64,000 nucleotides of DNA from Pirellulales bacterium (lineage in GTDB: Bacteria > Planctomycetota > Planctomycetia > Pirellulales > PALSA-1355), in assembly GCA_963733035.1 (NCBI GenBank), contig CAVTBU010000009.1, positions 192,001-256,000 on the forward strand, in the 5' to 3' direction. The notes below the pieces were generated by a model. It was not told the DNA's origin. It did no database searches and worked only from the letters and a program-made list of their open reading frames with translations. The translations under genes and the position numbers were made by a program. Positions 15,058 to 31,520 of this stretch are shown one piece after another (the first letter of the stretch is position 1; the number at the start of each line of letters is the position of its first letter).

Positions 15058-15231
15058 TTACGCCGGAAATGATCGAAGCTTTAGGGGTCATTGATCGGGT
15101 GTTCGACGGCTCGGCTATCCCCCAGGAGAAGCCACCCAGCCCCATGCCTAAGGCAATCTAACCGTTTCCGCCGCATTCGGGGCCACGGAGGGCGCGGGTG
15201 CACCACCTACGCAACAGGGAGATTGACGACG

Positions 15232-16014
15232 ATGTGTCTAGTTGAATCAATCGACCGGGCAATTGAGTTTGTCCGTGAACATGAGCTGCTAATGACGGAG
15301 GACGATGTGGATGAGCTAATACGGATCGCGGGCAGGGTCGTCGAGTTGGCTTTCCGCAGCGGCCTTCATTATGTTCTGCCGGGCATCGACATGCGTTCGC
15401 TGGTTGAATATCCCAGCGTGTCGGAGCCTCCCGTTGTATTGTCCGCCCTCAACGTGCCGGGCGATTGGAGTCGTGATGTTCTTAACCTGGAGGGTGAAAC
15501 ACTTGAACGTGCGTTTCTGCCGTGCGTGCCGGACCGTTGGTACGAAGCAATGATGATTCTACGATCTCTGGCCTGCCGTGACGCTCCTGCGGAGGAGCCG
15601 AACCAGCCCCAACCCAAGAAGCCCAAGGCAAAGGGCATGGGCCGAGAGGAGGTATTCAAGCGACTGGTGGAGCTGTGGCAGCAGGGAGAGCCGTTCACCA
15701 CTTGTGAGGAAATGGCTGAGCGGTTTGGTTGTTCTGATACCACCGTCCACCGAGCAATCCAGCGCAGTGAGAAGCTAAAGGCTTGGGCTGCGAAAGGGCC
15801 GAAGCGTACCCAACGGCTCGATGACGTAGTGCTAGACCGGACGGCTCAGAGCCGGGAGCCCGCACCGGACGATGACGCCCAATTGCGAGAATTGATTGAA
15901 CAGGCCGAACCGTCTTTGCGAGCATTCTTACACACAGTGCCACCCGAGAAACTGCGGCAGATGTCGGCCGATGATTTGAAGCAGCTAGTAGTCAATCCTG
16001 AGTGCAGAGCCTAG
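15232..16014 (+). CDS. HTH DNA-binding protein (putative element regulator)
   Basis: TCEEMAERFGCSDTTVHRAIQR helix-turn-helix; GGGAG upstream of ATG 15232. Confidence 0.65.
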   Translation: MCLVESIDRAIEFVREHELLMTEDDVDELIRIAGRVVELAFRSGLHYVLPGIDMRSLVEYPSVSEPPVVLSALNVPGDWSRDVLNLEGETLERAFLPCVPDRWYEAMMILRSLACRDAPAEEPNQPQPKKPKAKGMGREEVFKRLVELWQQGEPFTTCEEMAERFGCSDTTVHRAIQRSEKLKAWAAKGPKRTQRLDDVVLDRTAQSREPAPDDDAQLRELIEQAEPSLRAFLHTVPPEKLRQMSADDLKQLVVNPECRA

Positions 16015-16021
16015 GCCCAGC

Positions 16022-16085
16022 AGAAACGTTTCTCAGGCATTTCTCCGCAAAAACACGGCATTTCTAGCAAAAACCGGAAACGTTT
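16022..16085. promoter_or_regulatory. Operator-like array: two AAACGTTT palindromes around two GGCATTTCT-N1-2-GCAAAAAC direct repeats
   Basis: AGAAACGTTTCT 16022-16033; repeats at 16036-16054 and 16057-16074; GAAACGTTT 16077-16085. Confidence 0.55.
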
Positions 16086-16133
16086 ACCACCTATAGAGGC
16101 CCGCGATTTTGGGCTGGAAAGGATTGGTGAACG

Positions 16134-16355
16134 ATGAACGACGGTACTGCTCCCCGGCTGCGTACGCCGGGCATTATCGCTGTGGAGTTAAAGGCTCCAC
16201 TCTCCCGAGTGCTCTACGTCTTACGCACTCGCCCCCACATTCGTCCGGCTGCCTACGCTGGCACGATCCGCCTCTACCGCGAAGACGCTGTGGCGATGGT
16301 CCGCCATGAGCTCAACGCGATTGACTCTAGAAAGGGGGGCCGAAGCGATGCCTAA
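16134..16355 (+). CDS. Small HTH protein, excisionase/AlpA-like
   Basis: 73 aa, TPGIIAVEL…RVLYVL…RLY pattern; overlaps the start of the helicase gene. Confidence 0.55.
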   Translation: MNDGTAPRLRTPGIIAVELKAPLSRVLYVLRTRPHIRPAAYAGTIRLYREDAVAMVRHELNAIDSRKGGRSDA

Positions 16356-17943
16356 GCGTGACGACTGCAGGAGGGAAGACCCTATTGCGAAGCGGCCCGA
16401 GTTCAAAAAACGCCTCAAAGAAGCTGAACTGGCATACCAGGTGCGTGACAAGAGGAGCATAGGTGAAGAGCTTACGCCAGAGGAAGAAGACATCTACCTG
16501 TTGGACGTTGCTCGACGTACGGAGCAAGCCCTATCCAAGAGAGATCCAAACGCCAAGTCACCGGCTCGTGCACCACTCCTCACGAGGCGGACGAAACACG
16601 ACTCAACCGATGAGCAAAAACTAGATCGGCTCCGACGTGAATGTGCGGAGTTTAACGGACCACCGACCCTTGGCCCGCACGGTGACCTGCGCACGATGGC
16701 CCAGGTGTTGGCTTTGCTTCAACATGCCACGCCATTGCGTGACGCGTTCCTGGAGGGAGTTGGTATTCCACCGTCCGCTCTCTCAGTCCGTGTTTGTGAC
16801 CGACTATCCCACGGGATTTTGGAGGATCTTGACCGCACGGAGGCGTCAGGAATCTGGGATATACCCTGGGAGAAGCTAGAGATTGATCGCCAGGAACGTC
16901 GTCCACGCCAAGGCATCAACACCCGTCGATTGTCGGACGTTTTGGCCCATGAAGTCGAATGGCAGTGGCCAGGCGTGACCGCCCTAGGAAAGTTGACCCT
17001 GTTCAGCGGCAATCCAGGCGTGGGTAAGACCTGGCTGGCGTTGGATATCATAGCCCGACTTACAACCGGTCGCCCTTTTCCGCTCCAGGCGAATCCGCCC
17101 AACGTTGACCGTAAATTTCCAAAGGGTGAATTACTTGTCGGCGGGTCAATCCGGCGCAATGCGTTGTTCATAAGTGCGGAAGACGCAGACGAAGATACCG
17201 TCAAGCCACGAATCGAGCTACTTGGTGGCGATTCGACGCGGATTCACACGTTGGACTTCATTTTTGAGAACCGCAATAGAAGAACCCTCTCGCTCGCGGA
17301 CCATATCAACTATTTAGACAAGTGGCTCTTTTCTGAGCCGATGGTTGAACTCGTGGTGATTGACCCGCTAACCGCGTTCCTGGGGAAAACAGACAGTCAC
17401 AAGAACGCGGACGTGCGAGCCGTCTTGGAGCCGTTATCGAAAGTGGCGGAAAAACGACGCGTAGCCATCATCGGCGTCAACCATCTCACCAAGGGAACGG
17501 AAGGATCAGCCGTACATCGCTCGATGGGCTCGATTGGCTTTATGGCTGCTGCCCGAGTCGCATGGCAAGTCACTGCCGATCCTGATGAGCCAGACCGTAG
17601 CCTAATGCTGCCCGTCAAGGTCAACATCGGGAAGACCCCACGGGGCTTAGCGTTTCGGCTCAGCGAAACGACCGGCATCGAGTGGGAACAGGAAAGCATT
17701 GATCTGACCGCTGACGAAGCCCTCAACGGACCACGCGAGAGCAAGCTTGACGACGCTAAGGACTTCTTGCGCAACCTGCTGCGAGAGGGGCCAATGCCTG
17801 CGACGGCGGTGGAGGACGCAGCCGCGAAGGCAAGAATCTTCGGATCGACACTCAAGACCGCCAAACGGCAACTCGGCATCAAGTCCGAAAAGAGCCCGGC
17901 ACCGAACGGCGGTTGGGAGTGGCGGCTACCGGAGCGTCGGTAA
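16348..17943 (+). CDS. AAA (RepA/AAA_25-type) replicative helicase of the element
   Basis: Walker A GNPGVGKT, ISAED, Walker B LVVIDPL, NHLTK, GSIGFMAAAR; RBS AAGGGGG before ATG 16348. Confidence 0.85.
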   Translation: MPKRDDCRREDPIAKRPEFKKRLKEAELAYQVRDKRSIGEELTPEEEDIYLLDVARRTEQALSKRDPNAKSPARAPLLTRRTKHDSTDEQKLDRLRRECAEFNGPPTLGPHGDLRTMAQVLALLQHATPLRDAFLEGVGIPPSALSVRVCDRLSHGILEDLDRTEASGIWDIPWEKLEIDRQERRPRQGINTRRLSDVLAHEVEWQWPGVTALGKLTLFSGNPGVGKTWLALDIIARLTTGRPFPLQANPPNVDRKFPKGELLVGGSIRRNALFISAEDADEDTVKPRIELLGGDSTRIHTLDFIFENRNRRTLSLADHINYLDKWLFSEPMVELVVIDPLTAFLGKTDSHKNADVRAVLEPLSKVAEKRRVAIIGVNHLTKGTEGSAVHRSMGSIGFMAAARVAWQVTADPDEPDRSLMLPVKVNIGKTPRGLAFRLSETTGIEWEQESIDLTADEALNGPRESKLDDAKDFLRNLLREGPMPATAVEDAAAKARIFGSTLKTAKRQLGIKSEKSPAPNGGWEWRLPERR

Positions 17944-17954
17944 TGCTATCCCGC

Positions 17955-18114
17955 GACCCCTTCACCCCCTTCGACTCCTTCGACAAATCTCCCACAAAAT
18001 TTGGGGGTAATCGAAGAAGGTGGTTTCACCCCCTTCGACTCCTTCAACTCACCAATTTTTGAAGGGGGTGAAGAAGGTGAAGGGGACGAAGGGGGTGAAG
18101 AAGACGAAGAAAGT
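17955..18114. repeat. Putative replication origin: convergent arrays of 9-bp iterons (ACCCCCTTC / GAAGGGGGT)
   Basis: Exact 21-bp repeat TTCACCCCCTTCGACTCCTTC at 17961-17981 and 18025-18045; six GAAG-led 9-mers in reverse orientation at 18061-18114; A/T runs between them; immediately after the helicase gene. Confidence 0.7.
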
Positions 18115-18226
18115 TACCCCCATCGCACACCCGGACTGACACCCTTGTTGCCTTCCCCCAGGAAGCAGTCGCTAGACGACGCTTGTGAAGGTTGCGAAGC
18201 AAACTGACCAACGGAGAAACACCGCG

Positions 18227-18445
18227 ATGACTGAACGACTCGCTAGGTACGAAGAGTTGCTGAAACGGGCTCGCCTAAATGTCCTGCTGCTACGGCGGGA
18301 GATTCTGCGAGTGGAGCGGGCGATGGGCAAAGGACTGCCCCCGCTCGACATAGAGCCTTGGCGTGTAGAGGTTTTGGACATGCGACGGATTGAGAAAGTG
18401 ATTCTGGGCCTAATCGAGTTGGAGAAAAACCGCACGCAGACTTGA
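18227..18445 (+). CDS. Small hypothetical coiled-coil protein
   Basis: GGAGA RBS, 72 aa MTERLARYEELL…. Confidence 0.55.
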   Translation: MTERLARYEELLKRARLNVLLLRREILRVERAMGKGLPPLDIEPWRVEVLDMRRIEKVILGLIELEKNRTQT

Positions 18446-18533
18446 CTTCCTGAATGGGGACATACGATTGTTATTAGCGTATAACCCACTTGGGTGGTTA
18501 GATATCCCCTCATTCATAGGAGAGACTAGCGAG

Positions 18534-19139
18534 ATGGCTATAGACTATTCAAAGTTGATTGGGAAGCGTTCAAAGTTGATCCCCATCGTCCCAACTTCGG
18601 ACCTGTACTTAGCGAACCTGGCAAGAGACTGCGCCGACGGGCACCGCTTCGCCAGAATCTTTAGGGATACATGGCGTCAGATTCCATTGGGGGATCGGCG
18701 GCGAATGGTGAAGCATTGGCACACCGATGAAAGAATGGATTCTGGCTGGTCCCACCCGCGTATATCGCGGAGGATGGAGCGGGAAAGATTTCCCATCTCG
18801 CGTTCTGATTACATTGCGAGTATCCAGCTAATTGCGGGCTGGAATAAAGAATATATCTACCCACACTATCTACCGGACGACGCCGAACATTGCGGTGCGT
18901 TTGTCACTGTCGCCGCAATGGGTCATAAGTTATGGTTCCACGCGCCATCGGTTGCACGGATGCCGGACAATGTTGTGGCGAACTTGATAGCCAAGGGGCT
19001 GGCTCATGTGTATCAGTGGGCGACAGAGCCGGAGCTGTTTGACGATCCAGATGACCCAGGCAACACGGAGTACCTTGAAGGGGACGCCAACCAGAAAGTT
19101 GAGAGTTGGGGCTTTGAACTGTACTCGATTGAGGAATAG
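18534..19139 (+). CDS. Hypothetical protein with degenerate zincin-like motif
   Basis: AGGAGA RBS; LIAKGLAHVYQ…EGDAN resembles HExxH…E with the first His and the Glu replaced. Confidence 0.55.
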   Translation: MAIDYSKLIGKRSKLIPIVPTSDLYLANLARDCADGHRFARIFRDTWRQIPLGDRRRMVKHWHTDERMDSGWSHPRISRRMERERFPISRSDYIASIQLIAGWNKEYIYPHYLPDDAEHCGAFVTVAAMGHKLWFHAPSVARMPDNVVANLIAKGLAHVYQWATEPELFDDPDDPGNTEYLEGDANQKVESWGFELYSIEE

Positions 19140-19165
19140 CTGCACTCCCGAGCTGGATGAATCGA

Positions 19166-19206
19166 CCATCTACAGAATCCAACAACCCACTACGCCTACC
19201 CCTAGC
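19166..19206 (+). repeat. 41-bp direct repeat, copy 1 (CCATCTACAGAATCCAACAACCCACTACGCCTACCCCTAGC)
   Basis: Identical to 26873-26913. Confidence 0.95.
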
Positions 19207-19261
19207 ACTCACGGCTGGCGAATCGCTTCGCTTTATCGTGTTGCAGTCAATGAAGTGCCTG

Positions 19262-20449
19262 TCAGTCTGCATCGCCAAACGCGAGCAGCTCACCGCCTTT
19301 GCTTAGAAACAGCAGTTTCCCATTGGTCATCAAACCTTCGATTCGCTCGCTATCGGAAGCACCGATCTTCCATTTCAATTCGCCGTTGGCTGCGTCTAGC
19401 CCGTAGAGCTGGCCGTACAAGGTGGCAACATATACCAACCCGCCACCGAGAAGAGGCGGATCATAAATCGGCGCACCATGACCTGGAACATAATCGCATT
19501 TGAATTTCCAGATCATCTTGCCAGTTTCTGCGTTGAGTCGATAGACGCTCCCGTTGAGGGATCCAAAAAATACAGCGTCGCCTTGCACGGCGGCAGCGGC
19601 TTCCACCTCGAAGCCGCAATGGAAATCCCATTTAACCAGGCCAGTTTCCCTGTCAAGGCAATACAAACGCCTATCCTTTGAACCGATATACACATACTTT
19701 TCAGTGACAACAGGATTGCCGTAAATCCAACCCTTGGTCTGAAAGGACCATTTTACCTGCGCCGTCTCGCAATTAATGGCAACGATTCGCGACTGATCAA
19801 AGATAGGCTGAAACAAGGTCTTTCCATCGGTGGCCGGCATCCTGGGCCTGGCTCCATCAGCGCCAATTCGGCCTCGCCTAGCATCGAAACCGGGCGGCGA
19901 CGGTGGTGCGTCCTTCAGCAAGTCGACAGTCCACTTGCAAACGCCAGACTTTGCATCAAATGCATAGACTAAGCCGTCTTCCGCCATGAAAACCAACAAA
20001 TCGCCGATCATCACCGGCACGAAACCTTGTGAGCCCGTCTCCCGTGTCCAAACCACGTTGCCGTTGGAGGTGTTAATCGCGACCACGTATTTCTCCGTCA
20101 AAAAGTACGCAACGTCGGCCATGACCAAAGATAATTTCAGTGGCGCTGCGTACGCTGGGCAGTTTGCATACCGTAGCAATGTTCCGTCAGAAGCTCGGCA
20201 TGAGCTCAGCTGCTGGCGATCCACCGAATAAAGGAGGTCGCCAGCAGGAATCACGTTCGTTCCATGCTGTCTCCAGACAACCTTTGGTTCGTGTTCCAAT
20301 TTCAGTCTCGAATCGCAATTCGTTCTGGCTTGGTCCACTTGCAAAATCGCATCCGCGCCATAAAGTAGCGCCCTCGCATCGAGAGTAAATGACAAGGCCA
20401 TGGCAAGAGCCACACTTGTGTAACGTGCGGGCCGCTTAGTGTTCAGCAT
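19262..20449 (-). CDS. PQQ-like (BamB-type) beta-propeller repeat protein, exported
   Basis: Repeated xxYAxDxxTGxxxW blades; signal-peptide-like N-terminus. Confidence 0.85.
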   Translation of the reverse strand: MLNTKRPARYTSVALAMALSFTLDARALLYGADAILQVDQARTNCDSRLKLEHEPKVVWRQHGTNVIPAGDLLYSVDRQQLSSCRASDGTLLRYANCPAYAAPLKLSLVMADVAYFLTEKYVVAINTSNGNVVWTRETGSQGFVPVMIGDLLVFMAEDGLVYAFDAKSGVCKWTVDLLKDAPPSPPGFDARRGRIGADGARPRMPATDGKTLFQPIFDQSRIVAINCETAQVKWSFQTKGWIYGNPVVTEKYVYIGSKDRRLYCLDRETGLVKWDFHCGFEVEAAAAVQGDAVFFGSLNGSVYRLNAETGKMIWKFKCDYVPGHGAPIYDPPLLGGGLVYVATLYGQLYGLDAANGELKWKIGASDSERIEGLMTNGKLLFLSKGGELLAFGDAD

Positions 20450-20643
20450 GACGATTTTCCCCAAGGTGATTAACGAGCCAAGCGAAGAGAGCTCAGCGAC
20501 AAAAGATCCTGGCAAAGATCACTATAGCGAAGGTGCGCCGAGCGGTAAGTGGGCTGCCTACCCTTGACCGCCAAGCTGCTCCCGAGCGGCAACACCACGG
20601 AGATCAGAAACAGCATTCCGCGGTCTTGCAAATCTCGGGACTC

Positions 20644-20662
20644 ACAACCCACTACGCCCACC
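20644..20662 (+). repeat. Partial third copy of the 41-bp repeat
   Basis: ACAACCCACTACGCCCACC vs ACAACCCACTACGCCTACC (18/19). Confidence 0.75.
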
Positions 20663-20700
20663 TCAATCCAGCTCCTCTCGCACGTTAGTTATAGGGCTCA

Positions 20701-20733
20701 GTAAGTCGAACGCTACATGGCCAAGATTTCCGG
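20701..20733 (+). repeat. 33-bp perfect inverted copy of the left att junction (comM fragment + TT core)
   Basis: GTAAGTCGAACGCTACATGGCCAAGATTTCCGG is the reverse complement of 15009-15041. Confidence 0.95.
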
Positions 20734-22299
20734 GGCGTTGGTGACAGGTTCCTGGTTTCGCATCCAGACGATGCCGCGCTCCAGTCGGTACTTGGACCGC
20801 TTGCCCCAGGGTCGCTTATCCGTGAAGATGTCCACGCGCGAGATTGACCCGCGGAAGAATTGCCGCAGTAGATGTGGATCGGCTTTCGTGGCAGCCTCCC
20901 TGAAGCGTCCAAACCACTCTAGAGCAGCTTCGACCCTCCTGTCTATGTCATCGCCCTTCGTGCGTGAATTGGACGCACAGGACGCCAGACGGGCTTCTGC
21001 AGCCACACGTTGTCGACGCAATCCTCTGATCTGCTCTTGTACGTCGTCAAGCAGATCGGCGTCGACTTCCACCAGACGTTGCTTGGCCTTGGCCAGCTTC
21101 GCCTCGATGGCATCAAGTTCACGACGCAGTGCCTGCGGCTCGGGTTCCCGTTTCAGTTCCTTCAGTTGGCGTCTCATCGAGGATGCCAACTGCGCCAGGG
21201 TCTCGGGGTTGTAGTACCGTTCCTGCAGGCCATCCAGCACGCCGGCAACGATTTCATTCTGGCGTAGGGTGTTGCGGTCGCAGTACGTCTTCCCGTGCTG
21301 GCGGTATCCGTAGCAGGTGTAGTGGTGCTTGCCGTTCGACAAATCGCCGATCATCTTGTGCCCACACTTGCCACAGCGCAGCACTCCCGAGAGTACGAAA
21401 CCACCGCCGCTTGGGTGCGGTGTGGAGCAGTTCCTGCGCTCGGCCAACTGCTGCTGCACCCGGTCGAACGTATCCCGGTCGATAATCGCCTCATGGTGAT
21501 CCTCGAAGACGATCCAGTCGGCCGCGTTGTTCCGTTGCTCGGGGCGGCCCTTCCGCTTGTATTTCGACATGCAGCGCATGTTCCAGATGTAGTCTCCCAC
21601 GTAGACCCGGTTGCGGAGCATTCCAGCGATTCCGTTCGCTGTCCAGCCCTTCCCCTTGGGTGATGGTCGGCCTGAGTTGTTCAGCTCGTCGGCCAGCCCG
21701 CGCAGGCTCTTGGCCGCTAGGTACTCGGTGAAGAGCCAACGAACGAGCGCGACATCCTCTGTTGGCCCCAGCAAGAGTCGCTTATTGACCGCGACGTACC
21801 CCAACGCCGGCTTGCCGGATGCCCACAGGCCCTGCTCTGCGAGGCTAGTCATGCCGCGCGTGACATTCCTCGACAGATCGGTCAGGTATTGGTTCTTAGC
21901 CTCCTGCTGAATGCCGTACAGTACTCGACCAGCGAAGTCCCCCCAATCGATGAACCCTTGGGCGACGGTCGCGAGATGTACGCCAGCCCTGCGCAGTGGA
22001 AAGATCCAGTACCCAGCCTCGAGGGAATCAAATCGCCCGAACCGATCAATATCCCAACACAGGATCGCTTGGAACTTCCGGTGTTGTCCGTCTCTGACCA
22101 TCGCTTGGAATTCACGCCGCTTGTCGGTCGCATCGCCGCTGATTCCCTCGTCGATGTATTCACGAACGATGTGATAGCCGTTGGCCTTGGCGTACTTCTC
22201 GACTGCCGTCCGTTGGTCAGGAATCGAGGTTTCCTGTCGGTCGGTGCTCATGCGGTAGTAGGCCACCGCAGGGATGTAGTTTTCATTCGTCGCAATCAC
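20713..22299 (-). CDS. Large serine recombinase #1 (catalytic + recombinase + zinc-ribbon domains)
   Basis: YYRMSTDRQ (catalytic Ser), DEGISG, DRFGR, LSGVLRCGKCG, YTC…C, coiled coil; GGAGG RBS with GTG start. Confidence 0.93.
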   Translation of the reverse strand: MIATNENYIPAVAYYRMSTDRQETSIPDQRTAVEKYAKANGYHIVREYIDEGISGDATDKRREFQAMVRDGQHRKFQAILCWDIDRFGRFDSLEAGYWIFPLRRAGVHLATVAQGFIDWGDFAGRVLYGIQQEAKNQYLTDLSRNVTRGMTSLAEQGLWASGKPALGYVAVNKRLLLGPTEDVALVRWLFTEYLAAKSLRGLADELNNSGRPSPKGKGWTANGIAGMLRNRVYVGDYIWNMRCMSKYKRKGRPEQRNNAADWIVFEDHHEAIIDRDTFDRVQQQLAERRNCSTPHPSGGGFVLSGVLRCGKCGHKMIGDLSNGKHHYTCYGYRQHGKTYCDRNTLRQNEIVAGVLDGLQERYYNPETLAQLASSMRRQLKELKREPEPQALRRELDAIEAKLAKAKQRLVEVDADLLDDVQEQIRGLRRQRVAAEARLASCASNSRTKGDDIDRRVEAALEWFGRFREAATKADPHLLRQFFRGSISRVDIFTDKRPWGKRSKYRLERGIVWMRNQEPVTNAPEILAM

Positions 22300-22381
22300 A
22301 ATCCCGAGCCTCCATGGTTGAGATCAACAGTTGACATTGAGAAAACCAGATCGGCGACAATTCGTCAAGGAAACGCCACCG

Positions 22382-23047
22382 CTAGACCTCTCCCAATCTG
22401 TGGATTGAGTAATCCTCGACCTTATCCCAAAGGATGGTCACTACGCCGTTTTGCGTCATCACCGCAATGCCCGGATCGTTGTAGAGCACGTACCCGGTCG
22501 GCCCCGCGTCGTTATGACCGATGATAACCTTCCACTGCTGGGGAATCGGAACTTTGATGCCTTCAATGCGATGGAGTTCAATAAACCGTCCACTGTTTCG
22601 CAATTCGATGCACGCCTCAGAGAATTCCTCGAGTTGCGATACAGCCGACTTGGAGAGTTGCTGGTTCACAACTGTTTCTACTAGTCCAAGCGTTAATGCG
22701 CGACTCACGACGGACGTGAACGATCCAATAAAGAAGAGCCCGCTGCTGAAACCCTTGAACTTGGCTTCGATTTGCCGCTGGATGCGTTCAGCGGCACGTA
22801 CAAAGCCAACATCGAACATGAGGATTGCAGAACAGACGTGCTCACGACCGGAAACCATTCGTATTCTGGCCACGATGGGGTCCGGTGGGACGGGCTCAGC
22901 GAGTGGTGGCTCCATGCTACCGCCGACCATTTCGTCGGTAAGGCGGACAGGCTGTTTGCACGACGGACATGACACGACCCGGCCGACTAGTCTCTGGTCA
23001 TACTTAATGCGTCGGCCACACATGGGACAATTCGTTGTGGCACTCAT
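22382..23047 (-). CDS. Hypothetical protein with N-terminal zinc ribbon
   Basis: CPMC…CPSC, Pro-rich linker, hydrophobic segment. Confidence 0.6.
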   Translation of the reverse strand: MSATTNCPMCGRRIKYDQRLVGRVVSCPSCKQPVRLTDEMVGGSMEPPLAEPVPPDPIVARIRMVSGREHVCSAILMFDVGFVRAAERIQRQIEAKFKGFSSGLFFIGSFTSVVSRALTLGLVETVVNQQLSKSAVSQLEEFSEACIELRNSGRFIELHRIEGIKVPIPQQWKVIIGHNDAGPTGYVLYNDPGIAVMTQNGVVTILWDKVEDYSIHRLGEV

Positions 23048-23123
23048 GCACGGCAGCCCTCGCGGCTTGGATTTGGAAATATATCCCCGCCCCCAGTTCG
23101 CCCAGGGGCGGGGTCAGGGACGC

Positions 23124-23384
23124 TCAAGTCTCGTATCCGCCTATCTCCTGCCCAAGACCATGTCCTGCAGGATCGGCCATGATGTCCGCAAGGGTTGCGG
23201 CCCAGCCGCCGTCATCACCGCAACCGCGATTGTAGCCTTCGATGTACGCTTGGGCTTCGAGCGCGTTGTCCGCGATGTGGAGCAACGTCGGGGCAACATC
23301 CGGCCAGCACACAAAGATGGGCACGGGTGCCTCGCGACGGTTCGGGTCACCAAGGGTCAGATCGTCATCGTTCCAACGGACCAT
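23124..23384 (-). CDS. Small hypothetical protein
   Basis: Strong AAGGAGGT RBS before ATG 23384; 86 aa. Confidence 0.55.
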   Translation of the reverse strand: MVRWNDDDLTLGDPNRREAPVPIFVCWPDVAPTLLHIADNALEAQAYIEGYNRGCGDDGGWAATLADIMADPAGHGLGQEIGGYET

Positions 23385-23649
23385 GGCAGCACCTCCTTGC
23401 GCCGCGAGGAGCGCAGCAAAACAGCCACAGGCCCGTTGATCGTTGTCTGGGTGCCGAGACACCCTGCGCAGCCTCACGGTATGCGCACCGGTCAACGGGC
23501 TTGCGGCCATTCTGTCGACTTGACGGCATGGTATTCGACTCTCGGGTTTAGACGCCCACGAATCTAACAATCTGGTCAGCGCGAGACAAGTTAACATAAA
23601 ATGCCGCGAACGTTGTTGGAACCATCCATCGAAGTAGGATAATCCCAAA

Positions 23650-24264
23650 ATGGTGCTTTCGACTGTCGATTGGCTATCCAGTGAATGGGTAATGGTGGCG
23701 ATTGCCCTAATTCAGTTGGCCGCAACTTATTTTGCTTACAAGGTCGCGGGCGAGGCCGCATCCGCAGCCAAGGACTCAGTTACGATCGGCCACCTCACAG
23801 TGGAACAGATGCAACTCGAACGGCGTGCTTGGCTGACTTGCGAAACACCTCAAATCGAGCCATTTGAAATTGGTAAGTCGGTGCGATCCACGGTCAGCAT
23901 CAAAAATGACGGAAACACCCCCGCAGTTGTCAATCGGCAAATCGCTCAGGTGCTGGTGACGGATGCTGGTGGTGATGCGCTCGCAGAAATGGTCAAGACG
24001 GTTGAGCGTGAAATAGAACAATCAATGGCGCGAGAAGATGTCGTGGCACCCAATGCTAAGGTGGTTTTCAAAGGTGATCACGGCCTCCATTTAACGAAGG
24101 AACAGATCGATGCCATTTCTGTCGGCCAATGCGCCGTATACATACTTGTCCGCGTCAAGTACTGCGACATGTTCGGTGTTCGCCATATCACCCAGGGTTG
24201 TTATGTGTACACCCCTAGTGTGAAGCAGGTGTGGGGTTACCATGAGTTCAATTTCATGACTTAG
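23650..24264 (+). CDS. Hypothetical membrane-anchored cargo protein
   Basis: N-terminal TM helix then ERRAWL…IKNDGNTPA, beta-rich domain. Confidence 0.65.
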   Translation: MVLSTVDWLSSEWVMVAIALIQLAATYFAYKVAGEAASAAKDSVTIGHLTVEQMQLERRAWLTCETPQIEPFEIGKSVRSTVSIKNDGNTPAVVNRQIAQVLVTDAGGDALAEMVKTVEREIEQSMAREDVVAPNAKVVFKGDHGLHLTKEQIDAISVGQCAVYILVRVKYCDMFGVRHITQGCYVYTPSVKQVWGYHEFNFMT

Positions 24265-24305
24265 CGTCGGTCACGGCAAGCAACCTCAATTGCATTTGGA
24301 GCGAT

Positions 24306-24908
24306 ATGGTGCCACTACCCGATGCGGAATTCTGGCTGAAGACCCTGACTCCTTGGGCTGCGATTGTCGGCGCCGTTACAGGCGCCATAGGCCTAGGGCT
24401 CGGTATCTACAACCTGGTCCTGGCGCGAAAGTCACACAGAGTTAAGGTAGTGATTGAATGCAGTCTAGGCGGGAGCAATGTAGGGAAGGCGGAAGGAGGG
24501 GAGCCGATTCCGCAAGACCGCTGGCTCACGATCAAGATTATCAACTGCAGCTACTTTCCGATTACAGTGGACCGCGTAGGCCTCTCCATTCGGAAGCGGC
24601 GCTTGGCTAGGAGTAAGTTGTTTACGGTTCCACTCCGCAAGGATGTCTTTACCAAGCAATTGCGAATCGAATCTCGAGACGCAACTGAAGTCAAGTTATA
24701 CCTGGGCCGCCGAAGTCGGTTTGAGAAGTCGCGGTCTTTCGAGTATCTCAGCCAGCACACCGAAGAGCAAATTGTCGGTGCATTCGCGCACTTACCCACA
24801 GGTCAGACTTTCGTCGGTGGACGTGAGGATGCGCGAGCGGCATTGCGAGAGATGCGTCAAGTGTTCGAGTATTTCACCGAACATCAACTTCACCACACGA
24901 AGCAGTAG
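24306..24908 (+). CDS. Hypothetical membrane-anchored cargo protein
   Basis: GGAG RBS; N-terminal TM helix WAAIVGAVTGAIGLGLGIYNL; IKIINCSYFPITV. Confidence 0.65.
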   Translation: MVPLPDAEFWLKTLTPWAAIVGAVTGAIGLGLGIYNLVLARKSHRVKVVIECSLGGSNVGKAEGGEPIPQDRWLTIKIINCSYFPITVDRVGLSIRKRRLARSKLFTVPLRKDVFTKQLRIESRDATEVKLYLGRRSRFEKSRSFEYLSQHTEEQIVGAFAHLPTGQTFVGGREDARAALREMRQVFEYFTEHQLHHTKQ

Positions 24909-24912
24909 TCCA

Positions 24913-25830
24913 TCACGAGAACGGCCCCGGGTTCAGCTGGTTCAAGTCCGCGTATGCGAACCGGTTGAACGCCAAGTAGATCGCTGGCTGGCCCTCAGGC
25001 AGGATGGTGCCATCCTCATCGAGGTTGACCGTCATCGGCTCGCCCGTCTTCCGGTCGATGACGCGCTCTGCAGGCAGGCCGGGAAACGGCCGTGCGTAGT
25101 TGCCGTAGTTCAGCGCGGTACCCTTCCAGGTGTTCTCTGCAAACTGCCCCGGGTTGTCCGGGTCTTCCCTCAGCCGGAACCGAATCCGATAGGTGACGTG
25201 CTCGTAGATATCGCCGTTCACGTCCTCCTCGTCGGTTTCGATGTCATACAGCCACGCAGTACCGACCGGTGCGCCGTAGAACTCGGTCGCGCTGATCCGG
25301 TTGTGGAACCCAAGGAACACCGTAGGGTCGAAGGGAAACAGCTCGTAGCGGGTGACCTCGCGAATGTAGTCCCCTGAGGGCCCAGTCACCACAAGCGGCT
25401 CGCCGGCCGCAGTAGCGATGGAGTCTCCGGTCAAGACATCACGGGGCAGCGCCTCGTCGACCGTCTCACACCGCCACTTGCATATCGGCCGCCGGTAGAG
25501 TGGGTTCTCATCCTCGTTCGCGTTGGTGTAGCTGATGTCGTTCGTCAGCTTGGCGGTAACATCCCACAGCAGGCCTGGCAACCCGGTAATCGGGTTGCGG
25601 ATGGGACTCACCTCGCGGGCATCGTGATCCATCACCACCATGCCACGGTACAGCGTGCCGATCTGGGGAACACCGACTGCCCCGCAGATCTGATCGTAGT
25701 CCTCGGTGAGGCTCGAGACGACCTGAAAGGTGCGTGAGGCTTCGCGCTGCTTGTACCACAGCTTGTCCTTCTTCACCAACGCGATCTTGGCCGATTCGGT
25801 TTCGGCTTTCTCGCCAAGGCTAACCGCCAT
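24913..25830 (-). CDS. Hypothetical phage protein (possibly structural or tail-associated)
   Basis: 305 aa, host-like codon usage, TGATG-coupled to the upstream CSD gene and downstream of the capsid fragment; function inferred from context only. Confidence 0.5.
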   Translation of the reverse strand: MAVSLGEKAETESAKIALVKKDKLWYKQREASRTFQVVSSLTEDYDQICGAVGVPQIGTLYRGMVVMDHDAREVSPIRNPITGLPGLLWDVTAKLTNDISYTNANEDENPLYRRPICKWRCETVDEALPRDVLTGDSIATAAGEPLVVTGPSGDYIREVTRYELFPFDPTVFLGFHNRISATEFYGAPVGTAWLYDIETDEEDVNGDIYEHVTYRIRFRLREDPDNPGQFAENTWKGTALNYGNYARPFPGLPAERVIDRKTGEPMTVNLDEDGTILPEGQPAIYLAFNRFAYADLNQLNPGPFS

Positions 25831-26036
25831 CAGTCGAGCACCTCCACTCGCTCAGCACGCGGGCCACGGCCGGTGTCCTTGCCCAGCTCGAACTCGACGC
25901 GCTTACCGACGAGGTCGCTATTGAGTCTGCACCGGACGAGCGCGGAATGATGAAAGAATACGTCCTTGCTGATGTCCGCGCAGACGATGAAACCGAAACC
26001 GTACAGGTCTTTCACTGCCGAAACCAAACCCGTCAC
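25830..26036 (-). CDS. Cold-shock domain (OB-fold) protein
   Basis: YGFGFI (RNP1), DVFFHHSAL (RNP2), VEFE…GPRA; GGAGG RBS with GTG at 26036. Confidence 0.8.
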   Translation of the reverse strand: MTGLVSAVKDLYGFGFIVCADISKDVFFHHSALVRCRLNSDLVGKRVEFELGKDTGRGPRAERVEVLD

Positions 26037-26154
26037 CGCGATGGCCCTCCGATAGTGTTTCGTGGCGGGCCGCAGTCGCCGAACTACGGACCCGCCGCAC
26101 GGCCGAGGCAACTCAATCAAGCCGTGATTTCCTTGTTAGTTTGCTACGCCTGGT

Positions 26155-26866
26155 TCAGCTGGCGTCACCGCTCGACATGATGGCGAACTGCTCATCGCCC
26201 TGTGCCACGCCGAAGTCGTGGTAGCCACGCCATTGCATGCCCAGGGTGTTGAAGTCGGTCTGGCTGGACTCGATGGTCGGAACCGCGCGGCCGTTCAGGA
26301 GGGCGACCACGATTGCAGAACCAATTGAAGGTTCGGACATCAGGAACCACACAGTGCTGCTCTGGTTGCTGATTCCGCTGCCGTCCGGCTTCTTGATGCC
26401 GGTCACGTCCAGGTACTTGCTCTTCACGGGACGGTAGCGGCCTTGGTAGATGTTCTCGGTGCCGATCTGCGATCCGTTCGCGTCGACCGACAGTAGGGTC
26501 GTCTGTCGATACAGATTCGTCGCGGTGACGATCTGGGCAGTGCCCGTGAGCAGGATGGCTGGATCGGCCATAATCGGCTTTCCTCCTGCACCGGTGAACT
26601 TGCCGAAGGCGATTTCCCCGGCCTCCAGGCCCCCGATCGACAGCACATCATCGATCAGGTTGTTGTTGCCGACCGAGAAGAAACTGCCCGTGTTCGACAG
26701 TAGGGTGTCGTACACCTCCGATTCGATGGCCCAAACAGCACCATCAGCCAGACCGTTGAGCACCTGACGGAAGGCGTCCAGGTCGTCGTTGATGATGTGC
26801 CGGCGGTCGAGCGAAAGCATCCGCCCGCGGGTCTCCGCCTGCACGGTACGCTTCGAGTCCGACAGC
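26155..26866 (-). pseudogene. C-terminal fragment of a phage major capsid protein (Mu gpT-like), 5' truncated
   Basis: TRGRMLSLDRRHIINDDLDAF…LNGRAVPTIE…LGMQWRGYHDFGV; the frame is closed by TAG just upstream, next to the 41-bp repeat. Confidence 0.75.
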
Positions 26867-26872
26867 TATTCT

Positions 26873-26913
26873 CCATCTACAGAATCCAACAACCCACTAC
26901 GCCTACCCCTAGC
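26873..26913 (+). repeat. 41-bp direct repeat, copy 2
   Basis: Identical to 19166-19206; about 200 bp upstream of the resolvase. Confidence 0.95.
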
Positions 26914-27039
26914 CGAAACCGCAGCTGATCCTCGCCCGGATCGTAAAGCGTCAATGTCGCTGCGCTAGCCCCGTCGATTCCCGAGCGTTCTGCCCCTAGC
27001 TGCCCCCTCTGACCGTAACGTTTCGGCTCTAGTCGATAA

Positions 27040-27070
27040 TTTACTACGTGTGTGGTAGAGCGTAGACTAA
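27040..27070 (+). promoter_or_regulatory. Putative sigma70 promoter (TTTACT-N17-TAGACT) with operator-like spacer
   Basis: 24/31 identical to 27770-27800. Confidence 0.6.
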
Positions 27071-27114
27071 GGGTAACGGTACGTATGTTCACTACGATAC
27101 AGGAGGGGCGAACC

Positions 27115-27714
27115 ATGAAGCATATTGCGATCTACTTGCGGGTATCCACGACCGGACAGGACACGAAAAGCCAGCTACCCGACCTGGAACGATGGGCTGC
27201 GGCTCAATCCGATCCGGTCAAGTTCTACAGCGACAAGGCGAGCGGTAAGACGATGGACCGGCCGGGCTGGGCGAAGCTAGAGGCAGCGATTCGACAGGGC
27301 CGCGTTAAGGCTGTCGTAGTGTGGAGGATTGATCGACTCGGCCGCACCGCCAAAGGGCTTACTGCGCTGTTCGACGAACTACGCGAGCGGAAGATCAACC
27401 TAGTCTCGCTACGCGATGGCCTGGACCTATCGACCCCGGCCGGGCGGTTGATGGCGAACGTGCTTGCGTCTGTGGCTCAGTATGAAACCGAAGTGCGGGG
27501 CGAGCGAGTAGCAGCCGGGCAAGCCAAAGCACGGTCGCAGGGCAAGCGTTGGGGCGGCTCGCAACCGGGAGTGCGGAAGAAGGTCACCGATACGCAGCTC
27601 AAGGCTATCCACTCGATGCGTGCGAACGGCGAGCGTATCACCCATATCGCCACCGCTCTGGGGCTCTCTCGGCCCACGATCTATGCCGTCCTACGCGAGC
27701 CCGCAGCAGCGTAA
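27115..27714 (+). CDS. Small serine recombinase (resolvase/invertase family) with C-terminal HTH
   Basis: YLRVST, DKASG, RPG, DRLGR, DLSTPAGRLM, AQYE, LGLSRPTIY; AGGAGG RBS. Confidence 0.93.
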   Translation: MKHIAIYLRVSTTGQDTKSQLPDLERWAAAQSDPVKFYSDKASGKTMDRPGWAKLEAAIRQGRVKAVVVWRIDRLGRTAKGLTALFDELRERKINLVSLRDGLDLSTPAGRLMANVLASVAQYETEVRGERVAAGQAKARSQGKRWGGSQPGVRKKVTDTQLKAIHSMRANGERITHIATALGLSRPTIYAVLREPAAA

Positions 27715-27769
27715 AGTGAGGGCCGAGTGGAGCCTACGAAATACCCCGCAGATACTGGGCAGATAACGG

Positions 27770-27800
27770 TTTACTACAAGTGTGGTAGTAGCTAGGCTAA
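27770..27800 (+). promoter_or_regulatory. Putative sigma70 promoter (TTTACT-N17-TAGGCT) for the terminase operon
   Basis: Near-duplicate of 27040-27070. Confidence 0.6.
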
Positions 27801-27824
27801 TAGTAAGCGATGGGGGTATAAGCA

Positions 27825-28220
27825 ATGCCCAGAGTCAGCAGGGGCACCCGAACCAACCAAAGCCATAAGGGCCGAGTCTTGCCTCCCAAGTACACAGCCG
27901 GGTTTCTCACAACGCTGGACGGCCGCACTGAGTTGGCCCGTGGTCTACGCGAGCGGTTTGACTCGATTGTGGCCGATCTGGGCGGACCCGGAGAGCTATC
28001 GCAAATCAAGGCATCGCTGGTTGAACGGTTTGTCTGGCTGGAAGCATCGTTGATGAGCATCGAAGCAGCGATGGCCGAGACGACCGACCCGAAGCAGTAT
28101 GCCGACCTAGTTGCCCGCTGGACTCAGGCTTGCAACACGCTGCTAGGCATCGGTAAGTCGCTCGGCATTGACCGCAAGCTTGGCTCGGCGCCTTGGCTGG
28201 CGGAGGCTAAGCAAACATGA
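27825..28220 (+). CDS. Putative terminase small subunit
   Basis: 131 aa helical protein (DGRT…DLGG…LGIDR), ATGA-coupled to the terminase large subunit; call rests mainly on position. Confidence 0.55.
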   Translation: MPRVSRGTRTNQSHKGRVLPPKYTAGFLTTLDGRTELARGLRERFDSIVADLGGPGELSQIKASLVERFVWLEASLMSIEAAMAETTDPKQYADLVARWTQACNTLLGIGKSLGIDRKLGSAPWLAEAKQT

Positions 28221-29845
28221 TCGACGCCCAACAGTACCAGCTCTATGCCTCCAATCCGGCTGCCTTCCGCGATGATCTCAACGTAGAGGTAAGCGGCTCG
28301 GTCTGTCGCTTCGGTGATATCCAGGACGACTGGCAGCGTCGTGACTTTGAATCCCTAGACCCGGCTTGGCTGCGCTGTACAGGCAGGGACCACGGCGACA
28401 ACGCAATACGGACACGCGGCTACCTGGAACGCGGACGCGGACACTCCAAGACAACCGACCTAGCGATGATGGCCATCTGGGCCTTGGCGTTCGCCACTCG
28501 CTCACTGCGGGGCTACTGCTTCGCTGCCGACAAGGATCAAGCCGCGTTGCTCCACGATGCGATGCGTACGCTCGTGCGCTTGAATCCCTGGCTGGCTGAG
28601 ATCCTAGAAGTTCAGCGGGAACAGGTTGTAAACGTCGCACAAGACCATCGGGGCAACGGGAGCCGATTAACGATCTTCACCAGTGACGTCGGATCGTCCT
28701 ACGGTATCCTCCCGGACTTCATCATTGCCGACGAACTAACGCACTGGGCTGGTGATGGCTCGCTCTGGTACTCGATCATCAGCTCTGCCGCCAAGCAGAC
28801 GAATTGCGTGCTGGTCGTTATCTCCAACGCGGGTTTCGTCGACTCATGGCAGTGGAACGTCCGGGAAGCGGCTCGCAACGATCCTAGCTGGATCTTCTCT
28901 CGGCTCGATGGGCCAAGGGCTTCTTGGCTGACCAAAGATCGACTAGCCGAACAACGGCGCATGCTTCCGCCCATAGCGTATGACCGGCTGTGGGGAAACC
29001 GTTGGAGTTCAGGCGGTGGCGATGCCTTAACGGAGGAGGATATCCAGGCCGCATTCGACAACAACCTGCGGCCGATGACCGGTCGTGAATCAGATTGGGT
29101 ATTCGTAGCGGGACTGGATTTAGGGCTCAAGCGTGACGGCTCGGCCGTGGTTGTACTGGCGGCACCGGTCAACGGTCGCAACGGCGGTAGGATTCGCCTA
29201 GCTCATCATCAACTCTGGCGTCCTCAGGATTCAGGCGGCAAGGTCAAGCTGACGGAAATCGAAGACCATATCAAAAAGTTGGATCGGCGGTTTAACCTGC
29301 GATGCGTTGGCTTCGATCCATGGCAAGCCGAACACATGGCCCAACGCCTGGAAGTCCATTCCCGGCACCGTAGCCGCAGCTCTCGCTTTCGCTCGATAGA
29401 TGGGCCCTGGATGCGGGAGGTACCGCCCACAGGCGGCAACCTTCGCACAATCGCCAACCTAACCATCGAGACGTTCACGGATCGTCGGTTAATGCTCTTC
29501 GACTGTCCGCCGTTGGAGCGTGACCTACGCAAGCTGCGAGCGGAAGAGAAGAGCTACGGCGTTCGCCTTACCAGCCCACGCGATGAACATGGCCACGGCG
29601 ATAGCTTCACAGCCCTTGCCAATGCCTTGCTGCTGGCCCATGAGATAGCCGGTGAAAAGGTAATCACGCTCCAGGCTTGGGGCAGCGGGATGCCGTACGA
29701 CGATGGCGATGAGGAAGACGACCGGCACGCGATTGACGACTACCTGGAAGAAATGGAGTACCTGGAGAGCTTGCCTGATGGACCAGAGCGAGTGATTCGA
29801 GGCATCGAACACTGGGAGAACAACACGAATGACCCACTACTTTGA
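28217..29845 (+). CDS. Terminase large subunit
   Basis: Walker A RGRGHSKTT, AADKDQA, Walker B FIIADE, ISNAG coupling motif, nuclease AGLDLG…FDPW…HGD. Confidence 0.85.
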   Translation: MIDAQQYQLYASNPAAFRDDLNVEVSGSVCRFGDIQDDWQRRDFESLDPAWLRCTGRDHGDNAIRTRGYLERGRGHSKTTDLAMMAIWALAFATRSLRGYCFAADKDQAALLHDAMRTLVRLNPWLAEILEVQREQVVNVAQDHRGNGSRLTIFTSDVGSSYGILPDFIIADELTHWAGDGSLWYSIISSAAKQTNCVLVVISNAGFVDSWQWNVREAARNDPSWIFSRLDGPRASWLTKDRLAEQRRMLPPIAYDRLWGNRWSSGGGDALTEEDIQAAFDNNLRPMTGRESDWVFVAGLDLGLKRDGSAVVVLAAPVNGRNGGRIRLAHHQLWRPQDSGGKVKLTEIEDHIKKLDRRFNLRCVGFDPWQAEHMAQRLEVHSRHRSRSSRFRSIDGPWMREVPPTGGNLRTIANLTIETFTDRRLMLFDCPPLERDLRKLRAEEKSYGVRLTSPRDEHGHGDSFTALANALLLAHEIAGEKVITLQAWGSGMPYDDGDEEDDRHAIDDYLEEMEYLESLPDGPERVIRGIEHWENNTNDPLL

Positions 29846-30311
29846 ACGTATGGCTAAAGAGGCCGAACACTTCTATGCATTTACAGACCGCATGGGTTCT
29901 GAGCCGGTGTTTGCCGGGGGATGGTGGTACTTCAAGAACGGGGCTGTAAGCGATGGTTTCCGGTCGCATCACGAACCGCCAGAAGACCCTAACGAATTGC
30001 TCAAGAACCGATACCGCTATGCCGTCACAAGACTCGACGAGCTGCTAGACCTATACATCCACAACAAAAAAGTGATCGCCGAGCAAATTGACATCCATCG
30101 CATGGGGGCAGGACCAATGCCCGCGTCGGGCTGGGACGACGGGATGAAATCGCTCCGATCAAAAGTCCAGGTCGCTAGGGCCGTCGTCCGCTTGCTGTTG
30201 AAGAGACACCTACCGGACGAACAACCTGATGACGATTACGACAAGAACGAAGCACGGCGAGAGCTGACAGACAGCGCCCGTCGCACACTCGTCAAACTAG
30301 AGCGAGAGTAG
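29829..30311 (+). CDS. Hypothetical protein
   Basis: 160 aa, overlaps the terL end, inside the operon. Confidence 0.6.
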   Translation: MTHYFERMAKEAEHFYAFTDRMGSEPVFAGGWWYFKNGAVSDGFRSHHEPPEDPNELLKNRYRYAVTRLDELLDLYIHNKKVIAEQIDIHRMGAGPMPASGWDDGMKSLRSKVQVARAVVRLLLKRHLPDEQPDDDYDKNEARRELTDSARRTLVKLERE

Positions 30312-30315
30312 AGGC

Positions 30316-31149
30316 ATGCTGACGCTTACCGTCAACCTGACCGCCGCAGCTCGCAGCGAATCAATCAACGGACGGCCCTACCTGGTCGCTCCAATGACGT
30401 TGATCGTGCCGGGAGTCTTGAACGGCAGCAGGGGCCCGTTGCTCTATCCGCCCGAAGAGATTGAACGGAGCGTAGCGGCCTGGAACGGTGTACCGCTCGT
30501 GTTGGGCCACCCTCGCAACAGCAATGGCGTTCCTATCTCGGCTCGCTCGCTGGAGATTCTGAACCGGATCGGCCTAGGTTTCGTCCAGGGAGCCCGCACG
30601 GAGAACGGCAAGCTGATGGCGGAAGGCTGGTTTGATGTAATCCGCATGAAAGAAGTCCATCCAGCGGCCCTTGCTCGACTTCAAGGCGGACTACCGCTTG
30701 AACTGAGTACGGGGCTCAACACCGACAACTATCGGGCCACGCCTGGATCAACCTACAACGGCCGAGCCTACCATGCCGTGGCTCGCAACTACGAACCCGA
30801 CCACCTAGCAATCCTGCCGGAAGACAAAGGAGCCTGTTCCCTTAACGACGGATGTGGAGTCCTAAACATGCGATATGAAGATTTCAACCAATACCCCCAA
30901 CAGCTTGTTCACAACGGAGTGGTCTACCAGCCGGTAGGTCCAGTAGCCAACGACCTGAATGAAGAGCTGCTGGAAGAGCCGACGATCAACTGGCGGGAGT
31001 GGGCCGGCTGGGAAGATCCCAAGCCCGCAGCTCAGCCTTGCTCGAATCGTGCCGCAACAGAGAACGTCCAAGCTGATCCGAACGACATCAACGCCGAGAA
31101 GCTTGAAGAGGCGGATATCAACTGGGCCGAGTGGGCGAAAGGGAATTGA
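30316..31149 (+). CDS. DUF2213-like phage head protein (prohead protease/scaffold-like)
   Basis: GVLNG, WNGVPLVLGHP, ELSTG, PDHLAILP…GACS…DGCG. Confidence 0.75.
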   Translation: MLTLTVNLTAAARSESINGRPYLVAPMTLIVPGVLNGSRGPLLYPPEEIERSVAAWNGVPLVLGHPRNSNGVPISARSLEILNRIGLGFVQGARTENGKLMAEGWFDVIRMKEVHPAALARLQGGLPLELSTGLNTDNYRATPGSTYNGRAYHAVARNYEPDHLAILPEDKGACSLNDGCGVLNMRYEDFNQYPQQLVHNGVVYQPVGPVANDLNEELLEEPTINWREWAGWEDPKPAAQPCSNRAATENVQADPNDINAEKLEEADINWAEWAKGN

Positions 31150-31518: not shown

Positions 31519-31520
31519 CC

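Follow-up and report, generated by a model that had tools for sequence, protein, structure and literature searches.

The integration of elements into genes by large serine recombinases (LSRs), tandem arrays with remnants and satellites that use an LSR are all known. The Listeria prophage A118 is reportedly integrated in comK by an LSR, and tycheposons are said to line up in tandem at one attachment site together with the decayed remains of such elements. PLE, a phage satellite of Vibrio cholerae, reportedly uses an LSR as well. Small serine recombinases of the Tn3 and gamma-delta type act at res sites, where they resolve cointegrates. Here we compare with these systems an island in the comM gene of a Pirellulales bacterium (assembly GCA_963733035.1, contig CAVTBU010000009.1, positions 192,001 to 256,000; this whole stretch of 64,000 nt is called the window, and all coordinates refer to it). 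The junction structure of the island was read from the assembled contig. Judging by its genes, the island is a capsid-less, phage-satellite-like element of 10.5 kb (element A), in which a 7,666 bp block is nested between two perfect 41-bp direct repeats (41-mers). With moderate confidence, we regard the 41-mers as junction scars of one capture event in A, and not as a dedicated recombinase site.

The island (approximately 15040–33279; 18,240 bp) splits comM/YifB, a Mg-chelatase-like gene on the minus strand. The C-terminal part of the gene reaches to approximately 15039 and the N-terminal part begins near 33283; of 60 relatives, most have the two halves uninterrupted (e.g., G009:C105, 13298–14838). 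The left attachment site, attL, was delimited by comparing the junction with the intact comM of G009 and the attL of a relative, G107. Only the trinucleotide CTT is common to both junctions of the island, and the arms next to it make up an imperfect dyad, in line with the attP of a serine integrase. The gene of LSR#2, the integrase of A, ends 1–2 nt beyond the CTT core at the right junction. A target that is contiguous in relatives and split here, with an LSR gene at one end, points to LSR integration. Homologous LSRs interrupt the same gene elsewhere: in G107, an LSR 54% identical to LSR#2 lies in comM with the same core and a similar left arm; in G085, whose complete genome belongs to the same order, an 11.4 kb element ends with an LSR that is 62% identical to LSR#1, the LSR inside the block, and adjoins the comM N-terminal part. 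The two LSRs of the island share 31% identity, and the LSR#1-type crossover lies approximately 24–28 bp deeper into the C-terminal part of comM than the LSR#2-type crossover. A literature search without full texts found no report of serine integrases targeting comM. The LSR#1-type element L036 (G085:C1, 117447–128868) encodes a DnaB/AAA_25 helicase and, beside the LSR, an open reading frame (ORF) resembling a tyrosine integrase.

The architecture of the island sets the block apart from its surroundings. Outside the 41-mers all confident genes are on the plus strand, in the order helix-turn-helix (HTH) protein, helicase, orphan ORF, small serine recombinase, ORF131, large terminase (TerL), ORF160, DUF2213 protein, and LSR#2. 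Inside, the PQQ gene, LSR#1, the Zn-ribbon ORF, ORF 24913–25830, the cold-shock-domain (CSD) gene, and the capsid fragment are all on the minus strand. Without the block and one repeat, the island measures 10,533 bp. A sequence-only reading made beforehand had described this strand pattern, an all-plus core of 10.5 kb and a capsid gene truncated next to repeat copy 2, and all three descriptions proved accurate. The capsid fragment corresponds to residues 574–807 of an 812-aa protease-capsid fusion in a prophage of G014 (51% identity), that is, to the last 29% of the gene. Its homology opens at the first codon after a stop, and the stop is at most 7 nt from copy 2. The left edge of copy 2 falls on this break in mid-gene, an illegitimate junction.

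The rest of the block is similarly reduced. In the G014 prophage, the homologues of the capsid gene and of ORF 24913–25830 are approximately 6 kb apart, with head and tail genes in between, whereas in the window a single CSD gene separates the two. The G014 homologue of this ORF is found just downstream of an 800-aa ORF whose size and position suggest the tape-measure gene. Because the capsid gene is cut and head and tail genes are missing, this part of the block is a heavily deleted prophage remnant (B), in which LSR#1 is still full length. Searched against viral contigs, LSR#1 yielded just two distant matches (24–25% identity), and LSR#2 and ORF 18468 yielded none. A suspected frameshift in the PQQ gene was ruled out by an in-frame ATG at 20449 that is followed by a signal-peptide-like N-terminus. 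The block does not resemble a transposon insertion. Target duplications of transposons typically measure 2–14 bp, the yardstick used here, against 41 bp at this locus; the block gave no match to a transposase family, and its ends, one in a broken gene and the other at an intergenic point, carry no terminal repeats.

The origin of the block is indicated by a 45-nt inverted repeat (I1, 91% identity) between attL and a site inside the block (site X), which the sequence-only reading had not noticed. Read on the minus strand, site X is made up of three parts: the 3' end of LSR#1 with a P' arm resembling that of G085, 31 nt (CCGG...CTT) identical to the comM of the genome itself, and an A-type P arm (CTTACTGAGCCCTATAA, compared with CTTACGGAACCTTAGAA in A). 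We interpret it as an attR(B)-comM-attL(A') junction, now inverted, that survives from an earlier tandem array, where A' stands for a second A-type element. As the 31-mer is exact locally and shows 6–10 differences in the comM of 12 other genomes, the array would have existed in this very lineage. Beyond site X lies the stub of A', which carries the PQQ-propeller gene and diverged copies of two sequence motifs, M1b and pR (see below). The small recombinase did not bring in the block as a cassette; the block is the wreckage of earlier occupants of comM.

Three other interpretations of site X and its surroundings were considered. An attP of a circular block was rejected, as the right arm is identical to the B' side of comM and G085 has a distinct P arm; the logic of LSR half-sites makes site X attR-type. 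The A-type half-site could by eye also be aligned as a right (P') end, matching the P' arm of G107 at 11–12 of 12–13 positions, and this reading was rejected because the core and the joined comM strand are those of attL. Finally, a double inversion, with the 45-nt att repeats and the 41-mers as its crossover points, would restore a collinear array, but is no more economical than a single insertion.

Independently of the island, comM shows a second insertion point in several relatives, at approximately 33735 within the N-terminal fragment (the match breaks at query position 19235–19240 approximately). This break was seen in G016 (C87), G014 (C24/C30), and G032 (C1, 4713384–4726233), and probably also in G025, G006, and G010; the halves are approximately 12.8 kb apart in G016 and G032. 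Pieces of approximately 44 nt resembling the comM sequence just before this point occur elsewhere in G006, G026, and G045, and a 37-nt piece resembling the sequence just after it occurs in G024. Such short displaced pieces perhaps lie on the att sites of elements. In G004 (C1, 5094902–5095305), a second copy of the comM C-terminal end, 71% identical, is located approximately 700 bp from an intact comM and may be the leftover of an element carrying a replacement gene end. Just downstream of comM in the window, 74 nt (14500–14573) are 100% identical to G000:C4 307025–307098 and 78% identical to a place on C5; a tRNA scan of a part of the window that included this stretch found none.

Relatives of A indicate that it is complete without the block. 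In G003, a genome of the same genus, the right half of the element (C17, approximately 116900–123460) recurs without the block, with amino acid identities of 83% for the small recombinase, 64% for ORF131, and 72% for TerL; three small ORFs and an LSR follow TerL. Among metagenome contigs with homologues of the small recombinase, 34 extend at least 1.5 kb downstream of it, where ORF131 was found in eight, TerL in five, and the DUF2213 gene in three. In these three (L050, L057, and L074) an LSR lies downstream of the DUF2213 gene, and the scanned ORFs between the two gave no match to a capsid family. Since the right half recurs without a block in relatives, A appears complete without it. The capsid fragment might alternatively have been A's own gene in inverted orientation. 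This was rejected, as the relatives have no capsid gene between the DUF2213 gene and the LSR, and no N-terminal capsid piece was found elsewhere in the genome.

Once the block is set aside, the genes of A (an integrase, replication and packaging genes, and no virion structural genes) are those of a satellite, and the same holds for the G003 relative. A module of small recombinase, ORF131, TerL, small ORF, DUF2213 protein, and LSR without portal, capsid, or tail genes was observed in the window (26914–33284), G003, L038, L050, L057, and L074, and the metagenome contigs carrying it come from varied sources. The A-type module may represent an undescribed satellite-like family.

The 41-mers themselves were found by exact-match search, 7,707 bp apart from start to start, as the sequence-only reading had reported; none of 100 shuffles reached two matches. 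The genome (6.65 Mb) holds the 41-mer twice, both times in the window, so it is not a dispersed genomic repeat, the outcome that had been named as counting against a resolvase site. Beyond these copies, it was not seen in 401 genomes of the order, in viral contigs, or in a contig collection of 185,579 species. When up to three mismatches were allowed, a 24-mer was matched in two of the order's 400 other genomes, with three mismatches in both, and a degenerate 21-mer core matched three contigs of unrelated taxa in the species collection, which is the level of chance. None of these five places codes for a relative of an island protein.

A partial third copy of the repeat, pR, previously noticed as an 18/19 match, also exceeded chance (three matches in 0 of 100 shuffles). 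An impression by eye that the similarity between the flanks of pR and copy 2 extended further was dropped, as 1065 of 2000 shuffles scored equally well. A second motif, M1, accompanies both places: a 16-nt version (M1a) precedes copy 1 by 12 nt, a 14-nt version (M1b) precedes pR by 56 nt, and these are the sole two matches in the window (0 of 100 shuffles). As M1 and the repeat core are paired twice, in A and, in diverged form, in the A' stub, they fit a linked unit of the spacer of A-type elements. Furthermore, the last 14 nt of the 41-mer and one more nucleotide resemble a similarly placed 15-mer in L038, the closest metagenome relative (14/15; 1 of 1000 shuffles), while the same comparison was not significant for nine other relatives. 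This likeness and the linkage to M1 suggest that the 41-mer is native to the spacer between the modules of A. The 41-mer has no inverted repeat or dyad symmetry, no fold (z-scores of –0.8, 0.0, and –0.9), and no match to an RNA family in Rfam. It lies at no predicted promoter or terminator, and the scans for both were at the level of chance.

The sequence-only reading had taken the 41-mer for a resolvase-type crossover site through which foreign DNA was captured or co-integrated. The capture of foreign DNA holds, as a nested block interrupts a collinear element whose relatives are blockless; the proposed site does not agree with what we observed around the small serine recombinase. Copy 2 does end 201 bp upstream of the ATG of this gene, where approximately 200 bp had been estimated, and 30 bp to its right begins a GTAAAG-type motif (often AAGTGTAAAGnGTCAAT). 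Among 60 distinct upstream regions from metagenomes, 34 have this motif between positions –200 and –105. A second copy and an inverted copy, at fixed spacing, were present in four of the 60 by strict pattern, and in more by eye. The upstream region in the window also holds a promoter-like element (TTTACT-17-TAGACT, 37 nt), of which two copies (27040–27076 and 27770–27806; 76% identical; repeat D7) precede the small recombinase gene and ORF131 and are conserved in G003. Three copies of the repeat in direct orientation at module boundaries, the perfect identity and sharp edges of the 41-mers, and the resemblance to the L038 15-mer could likewise be expected of a crossover site through which the block was brought in or is held.

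Other observations nevertheless make such a role unlikely. The 41-mer carries neither a GTAAAG-type motif nor a dyad that would combine half-sites into a crossover site. It does not travel with the enzyme: 80 metagenome contigs with 60–80% identical recombinase homologues lack it (the best match was 12 nt), as does G003, so that the expectation of finding it always beside this resolvase, flanking variable cargo, was not borne out. Accessory sequences adjoin copy 2 only; next to copy 1 lies the 3' flank of the PQQ gene, and none of approximately 40 metagenome contigs of at least 3 kb has the upstream region in duplicate. Copy 2 begins at a break in a capsid gene, and the closest solved structures to the recombinase are the invertase Gin (E 4.7e-25) and, after it, the gamma-delta and Tn3 resolvases. 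Moreover, resolvases prefer intramolecular deletion, and two functional direct sites would have resolved.

We therefore propose the following order of events, in which the 41-mers would be scars. LSR#2 would have integrated element A at the CTT core in comM. A combines a replication module (HTH protein, helicase, and origin-like repeats) with a packaging and integration module, and the 41-mer would be a stretch of the spacer between them. An older piece of mobile DNA, the 7,666 bp block, would have entered this spacer, the 41-mer ending up on both sides. The piece would be an inverted relic of the tandem array that once occupied comM in the same lineage, comprising the right end of prophage B with LSR#1, its attR with 31 bp of comM, and the attL end of A'. 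The doubling of the 41-mer may have arisen as a target duplication in an illegitimate or replicative insertion, or from a single crossover on 41 bp that were shared. As attL and attR are clean, the composite probably then moved into an empty comM via LSR#2. Both perfect 41-mers most likely descend from the single copy of A, because the edge lies in a broken gene and the block's own spacer is strongly diverged.

A variant of the crossover deserves separate mention, in which a circle containing the block and one 41-mer, acquired earlier from an A-type element, was integrated by a Campbell-type exchange through RecA. By reasoning, a 7,707 bp circle that crossed over once would give exactly the present order and inverted orientation, the block does contain A-type sequence (the P arm, M1b, and pR), and 41 bp of identity are near the lower limit for RecA-dependent exchange. 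We consider this route possible but improbable: with M1b and pR so diverged, the perfect 41-mer is likelier to be A's own, and a 41-mer located between two illegitimate junctions of the circle would call for extra prior events.

The scar interpretation has weaknesses of its own. Chief among them, we know of no standard bacterial mechanism that duplicates a 41 bp target, and the alternative of a single crossover needs an incoming 41-mer already placed between two illegitimate junctions. The presence of pR and M1b in the block could mean that A-type elements share a functional site used repeatedly, which would favor a site-specific process. Copy 2 is a mere 30 bp from the recurring motif region, roughly the position of a distal res subsite, and from one relative to the next, serine recombinase sites can differ so far that they are no longer recognizable. 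The G+C content is 0.53 both in 18185–19139, which holds the orphan ORF, and in the PQQ gene, spanning copy 1; this low value also fits copy 1 lying within one native unit. Finally, both junctions of the block were read from the assembly.

Regarding this last point, threading of a separate molecule or locus into the contig via the shared 41-mer is a pattern typical of graph assemblers at short shared repeats. Such an artefact is highly improbable here, as the assembly separates exact repeats as long as 2,144 bp inside contigs, its contigs contain no N, and the block, with its comM-targeting ends and its stretch of local comM, has a content that makes biological sense at this locus.

The packaging genes of A raise the question of whether the 41-mer could mark the ends of packaged A DNA, as a short direct terminal repeat or a cut site, with a chromosomal fragment joined between the ends of a linear A before this closed into a circle again and integrated. 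Element A encodes TerL and, in ORF131, a candidate small terminase (TerS); the repeat lies upstream of this operon, as pac or cos sites often do, and both ends of the block, one of them within a gene, resemble random breaks. The relatives have no comparable repeat, pR would be left unexplained, and the TerS assignment is weak (no fold match with E ≤ 0.001), making this explanation very unlikely. The modeled structure of ORF131 is all-helical, with a predicted local distance difference test score (pLDDT) of 72, and 15 among the 50 fold matches listed bear a small-terminase name. A broader form of the idea, which we think has a small chance of being right, is that a B-type helper and an A-type satellite share comM in tandem, placed there by two LSRs cutting approximately 24–28 bp apart, and that the block is such a pair in fossil form, captured during packaging or entry between the 41 bp terminal repeats of the satellite. 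Its corollary, that A-type elements are widespread, undescribed capsid-less satellites with their own terminase, is in our estimation just as doubtful.

Returning to the scar interpretation, the 41-mers are probably inert and probably have no present role except in rare loss of the block by RecA-type recombination. The whole island may still be mobile through LSR#2. The coordinates of all features are listed in Table 1.

Table 1. Features of the comM island and its borders, in order of position in the window.
Feature	Position	Strand	Evidence or remark
comM/YifB C-terminal fragment, Mg_chelatase_C	14615–15039	-	Pfam E 2.7e-32
attL of A: comM, CTT core (15037–15039), P arm CTTACGGAACCTTAGAA	15009–15053	+	Comparison with G009 and G107
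HTH protein	15091–16014	+	Weak HTH_11, E 4.7e-5, below Pfam cut-off
AAA_25/DnaB-like replicative helicase-primase	16306–17943	+	Pfam AAA_25 E 3.8e-27; PHROG primase/helicase
9-nt periodic repeats, imperfect palindrome	17950–18111	.	Repeats D1, D3, D5, I2, I4, I10
Orphan ORF, last of A's left module	18468–19139	+	No Pfam or PHROG match
M1a, AGCTGCACTCCCGAGC	19138–19153	+	12 nt before repeat copy 1
41-bp repeat copy 1	19166–19206	+	Exact-match search
PQQ/BamB-like beta-propeller, predicted secreted, cargo	19262–20449	-	Pfam PQQ_2 E 3.7e-36
M1b, AGCTGCTCCCGAGC	20574–20587	+	Diverged second copy of M1, 56 nt before pR
Partial repeat copy pR, ACAACCCACTACGCCcACC	20644–20662	+	18/19 identity
Site X	20689–20733	-	Inverted repeat I1; comparison with G085 and G107 junctions
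LSR#1, 528 aa	20713–22299	-	Pfam Resolvase, Recombinase, Zn_ribbon_recom (full domain set)
Zn-ribbon ORF	22382–23047	-	Weak Pfam matches; 48% identical to G024 homologue
Tail-module ORF	24913–25830	-	37% identical to G014 prophage ORF; no Pfam match
Cold-shock-domain protein	25830–26120	-	Pfam CSD E 4.8e-13
Protease-capsid fusion, C-terminal fragment, 236 codons	26155–26865	-	Phage_capsid_4; PHROG 133/4523
41-bp repeat copy 2	26873–26913	+	Exact-match search
Small recombinase upstream region: GTAAAG-type motif (26943), promoter-like element	26938–27076	+	Conserved in G003
Small serine recombinase, catalytic domain and C-terminal HTH	27115–27714	+	Pfam Resolvase E 2.6e-40, HTH_7
ORF131, candidate small terminase	27825–28220	+	Conserved beside recombinase and TerL
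Large terminase TerL	28217–29845	+	Pfam TerL_ATPase E 1.8e-10; PHROG 9 E 3e-29
DUF2213 protein	30316–31149	+	Pfam DUF2213; PHROG 760 E 5e-23, PHROG 530 E 1.6e-6
LSR#2, 587 aa, integrase of A	31521–33284	+	Pfam domains
attR of A: P' arm, CTT core (33280–33282), comM	33262–33300	+	Junction comparison
comM N-terminal fragment, ChlI and Mg_chelatase	33285–34447	-	Pfam E 9e-80

Some further features of A were noted. The 9-nt periodic repeats (GAAGGGGGT and similar) directly follow the helicase gene and include an array detected by Tandem Repeats Finder (18060–18111); this stretch is a likely candidate for the replication origin of A. In Rfam, the window gave two sub-threshold matches to microRNA models, on the palindromic repeats at 17937–18128, which we consider spurious. 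The orphan ORF had weak matches in two of 301 genomes of the order besides its own. Of the two PHROG matches of the DUF2213 protein, PHROG 760 is of unknown function and PHROG 530, the second, is a head maturation protease. Directly before the start codon of LSR#2, a 9-nt unit (GAAGTCGCG) is perfectly repeated in tandem in 2.8 copies (31492–31516).

The locus illustrates how small integrative elements can take up cargo or wreckage from rivals for the same attachment gene, and it preserves a rare molecular fossil, the attR-comM-attL junction of a lost tandem array. Two serine-integrase lineages that cross over approximately 24–28 bp apart in comM could be of some use in choosing orthogonal integrases. 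As the 41 bp repeat is probably an inert scar, the practical weight of the case is modest. The A-type family may deserve separate study.

In comparison with known systems, the island shares with gene-inserted LSR prophages such as A118 in comK a split host gene that is intact in relatives, an LSR gene whose 3' end runs into the att site, a very short common core (CTT here), and an imperfect dyad of the P and P' arms. It differs from them in the use of one gene by two divergent LSRs with offset crossovers, and in an array junction that was kept, inverted, inside another element. Like tycheposon-type arrays, the site has received several elements and retains truncated relics of older occupants, but here the relic is nested, in inverted orientation, in the spacer between two modules of the resident element and has a perfect copy of the 41-mer on either side. 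With the res sites of Tn3 and gamma-delta, it has in common a small serine recombinase gene preceded by repeated motifs and direct repeats that flank a segment; unlike in those systems, the 41-mer lies outside the motif region, lacks a dyad, is not kept alongside the enzyme in relatives, and has one copy alone beside the motifs. Element A resembles PLE and elements like the phage-inducible chromosomal islands in its small size, in its integrase, replication, and packaging genes, and in the lack of capsid, portal, and tail genes, a likeness by gene content only. Unlike them, it encodes a complete TerL, a DUF2213 protein, and, in addition, a small serine recombinase. What is particular to this locus is the combination of offset LSR crossovers in comM, an array junction fossilized in another element, and a perfect duplication of 41 bp around it.

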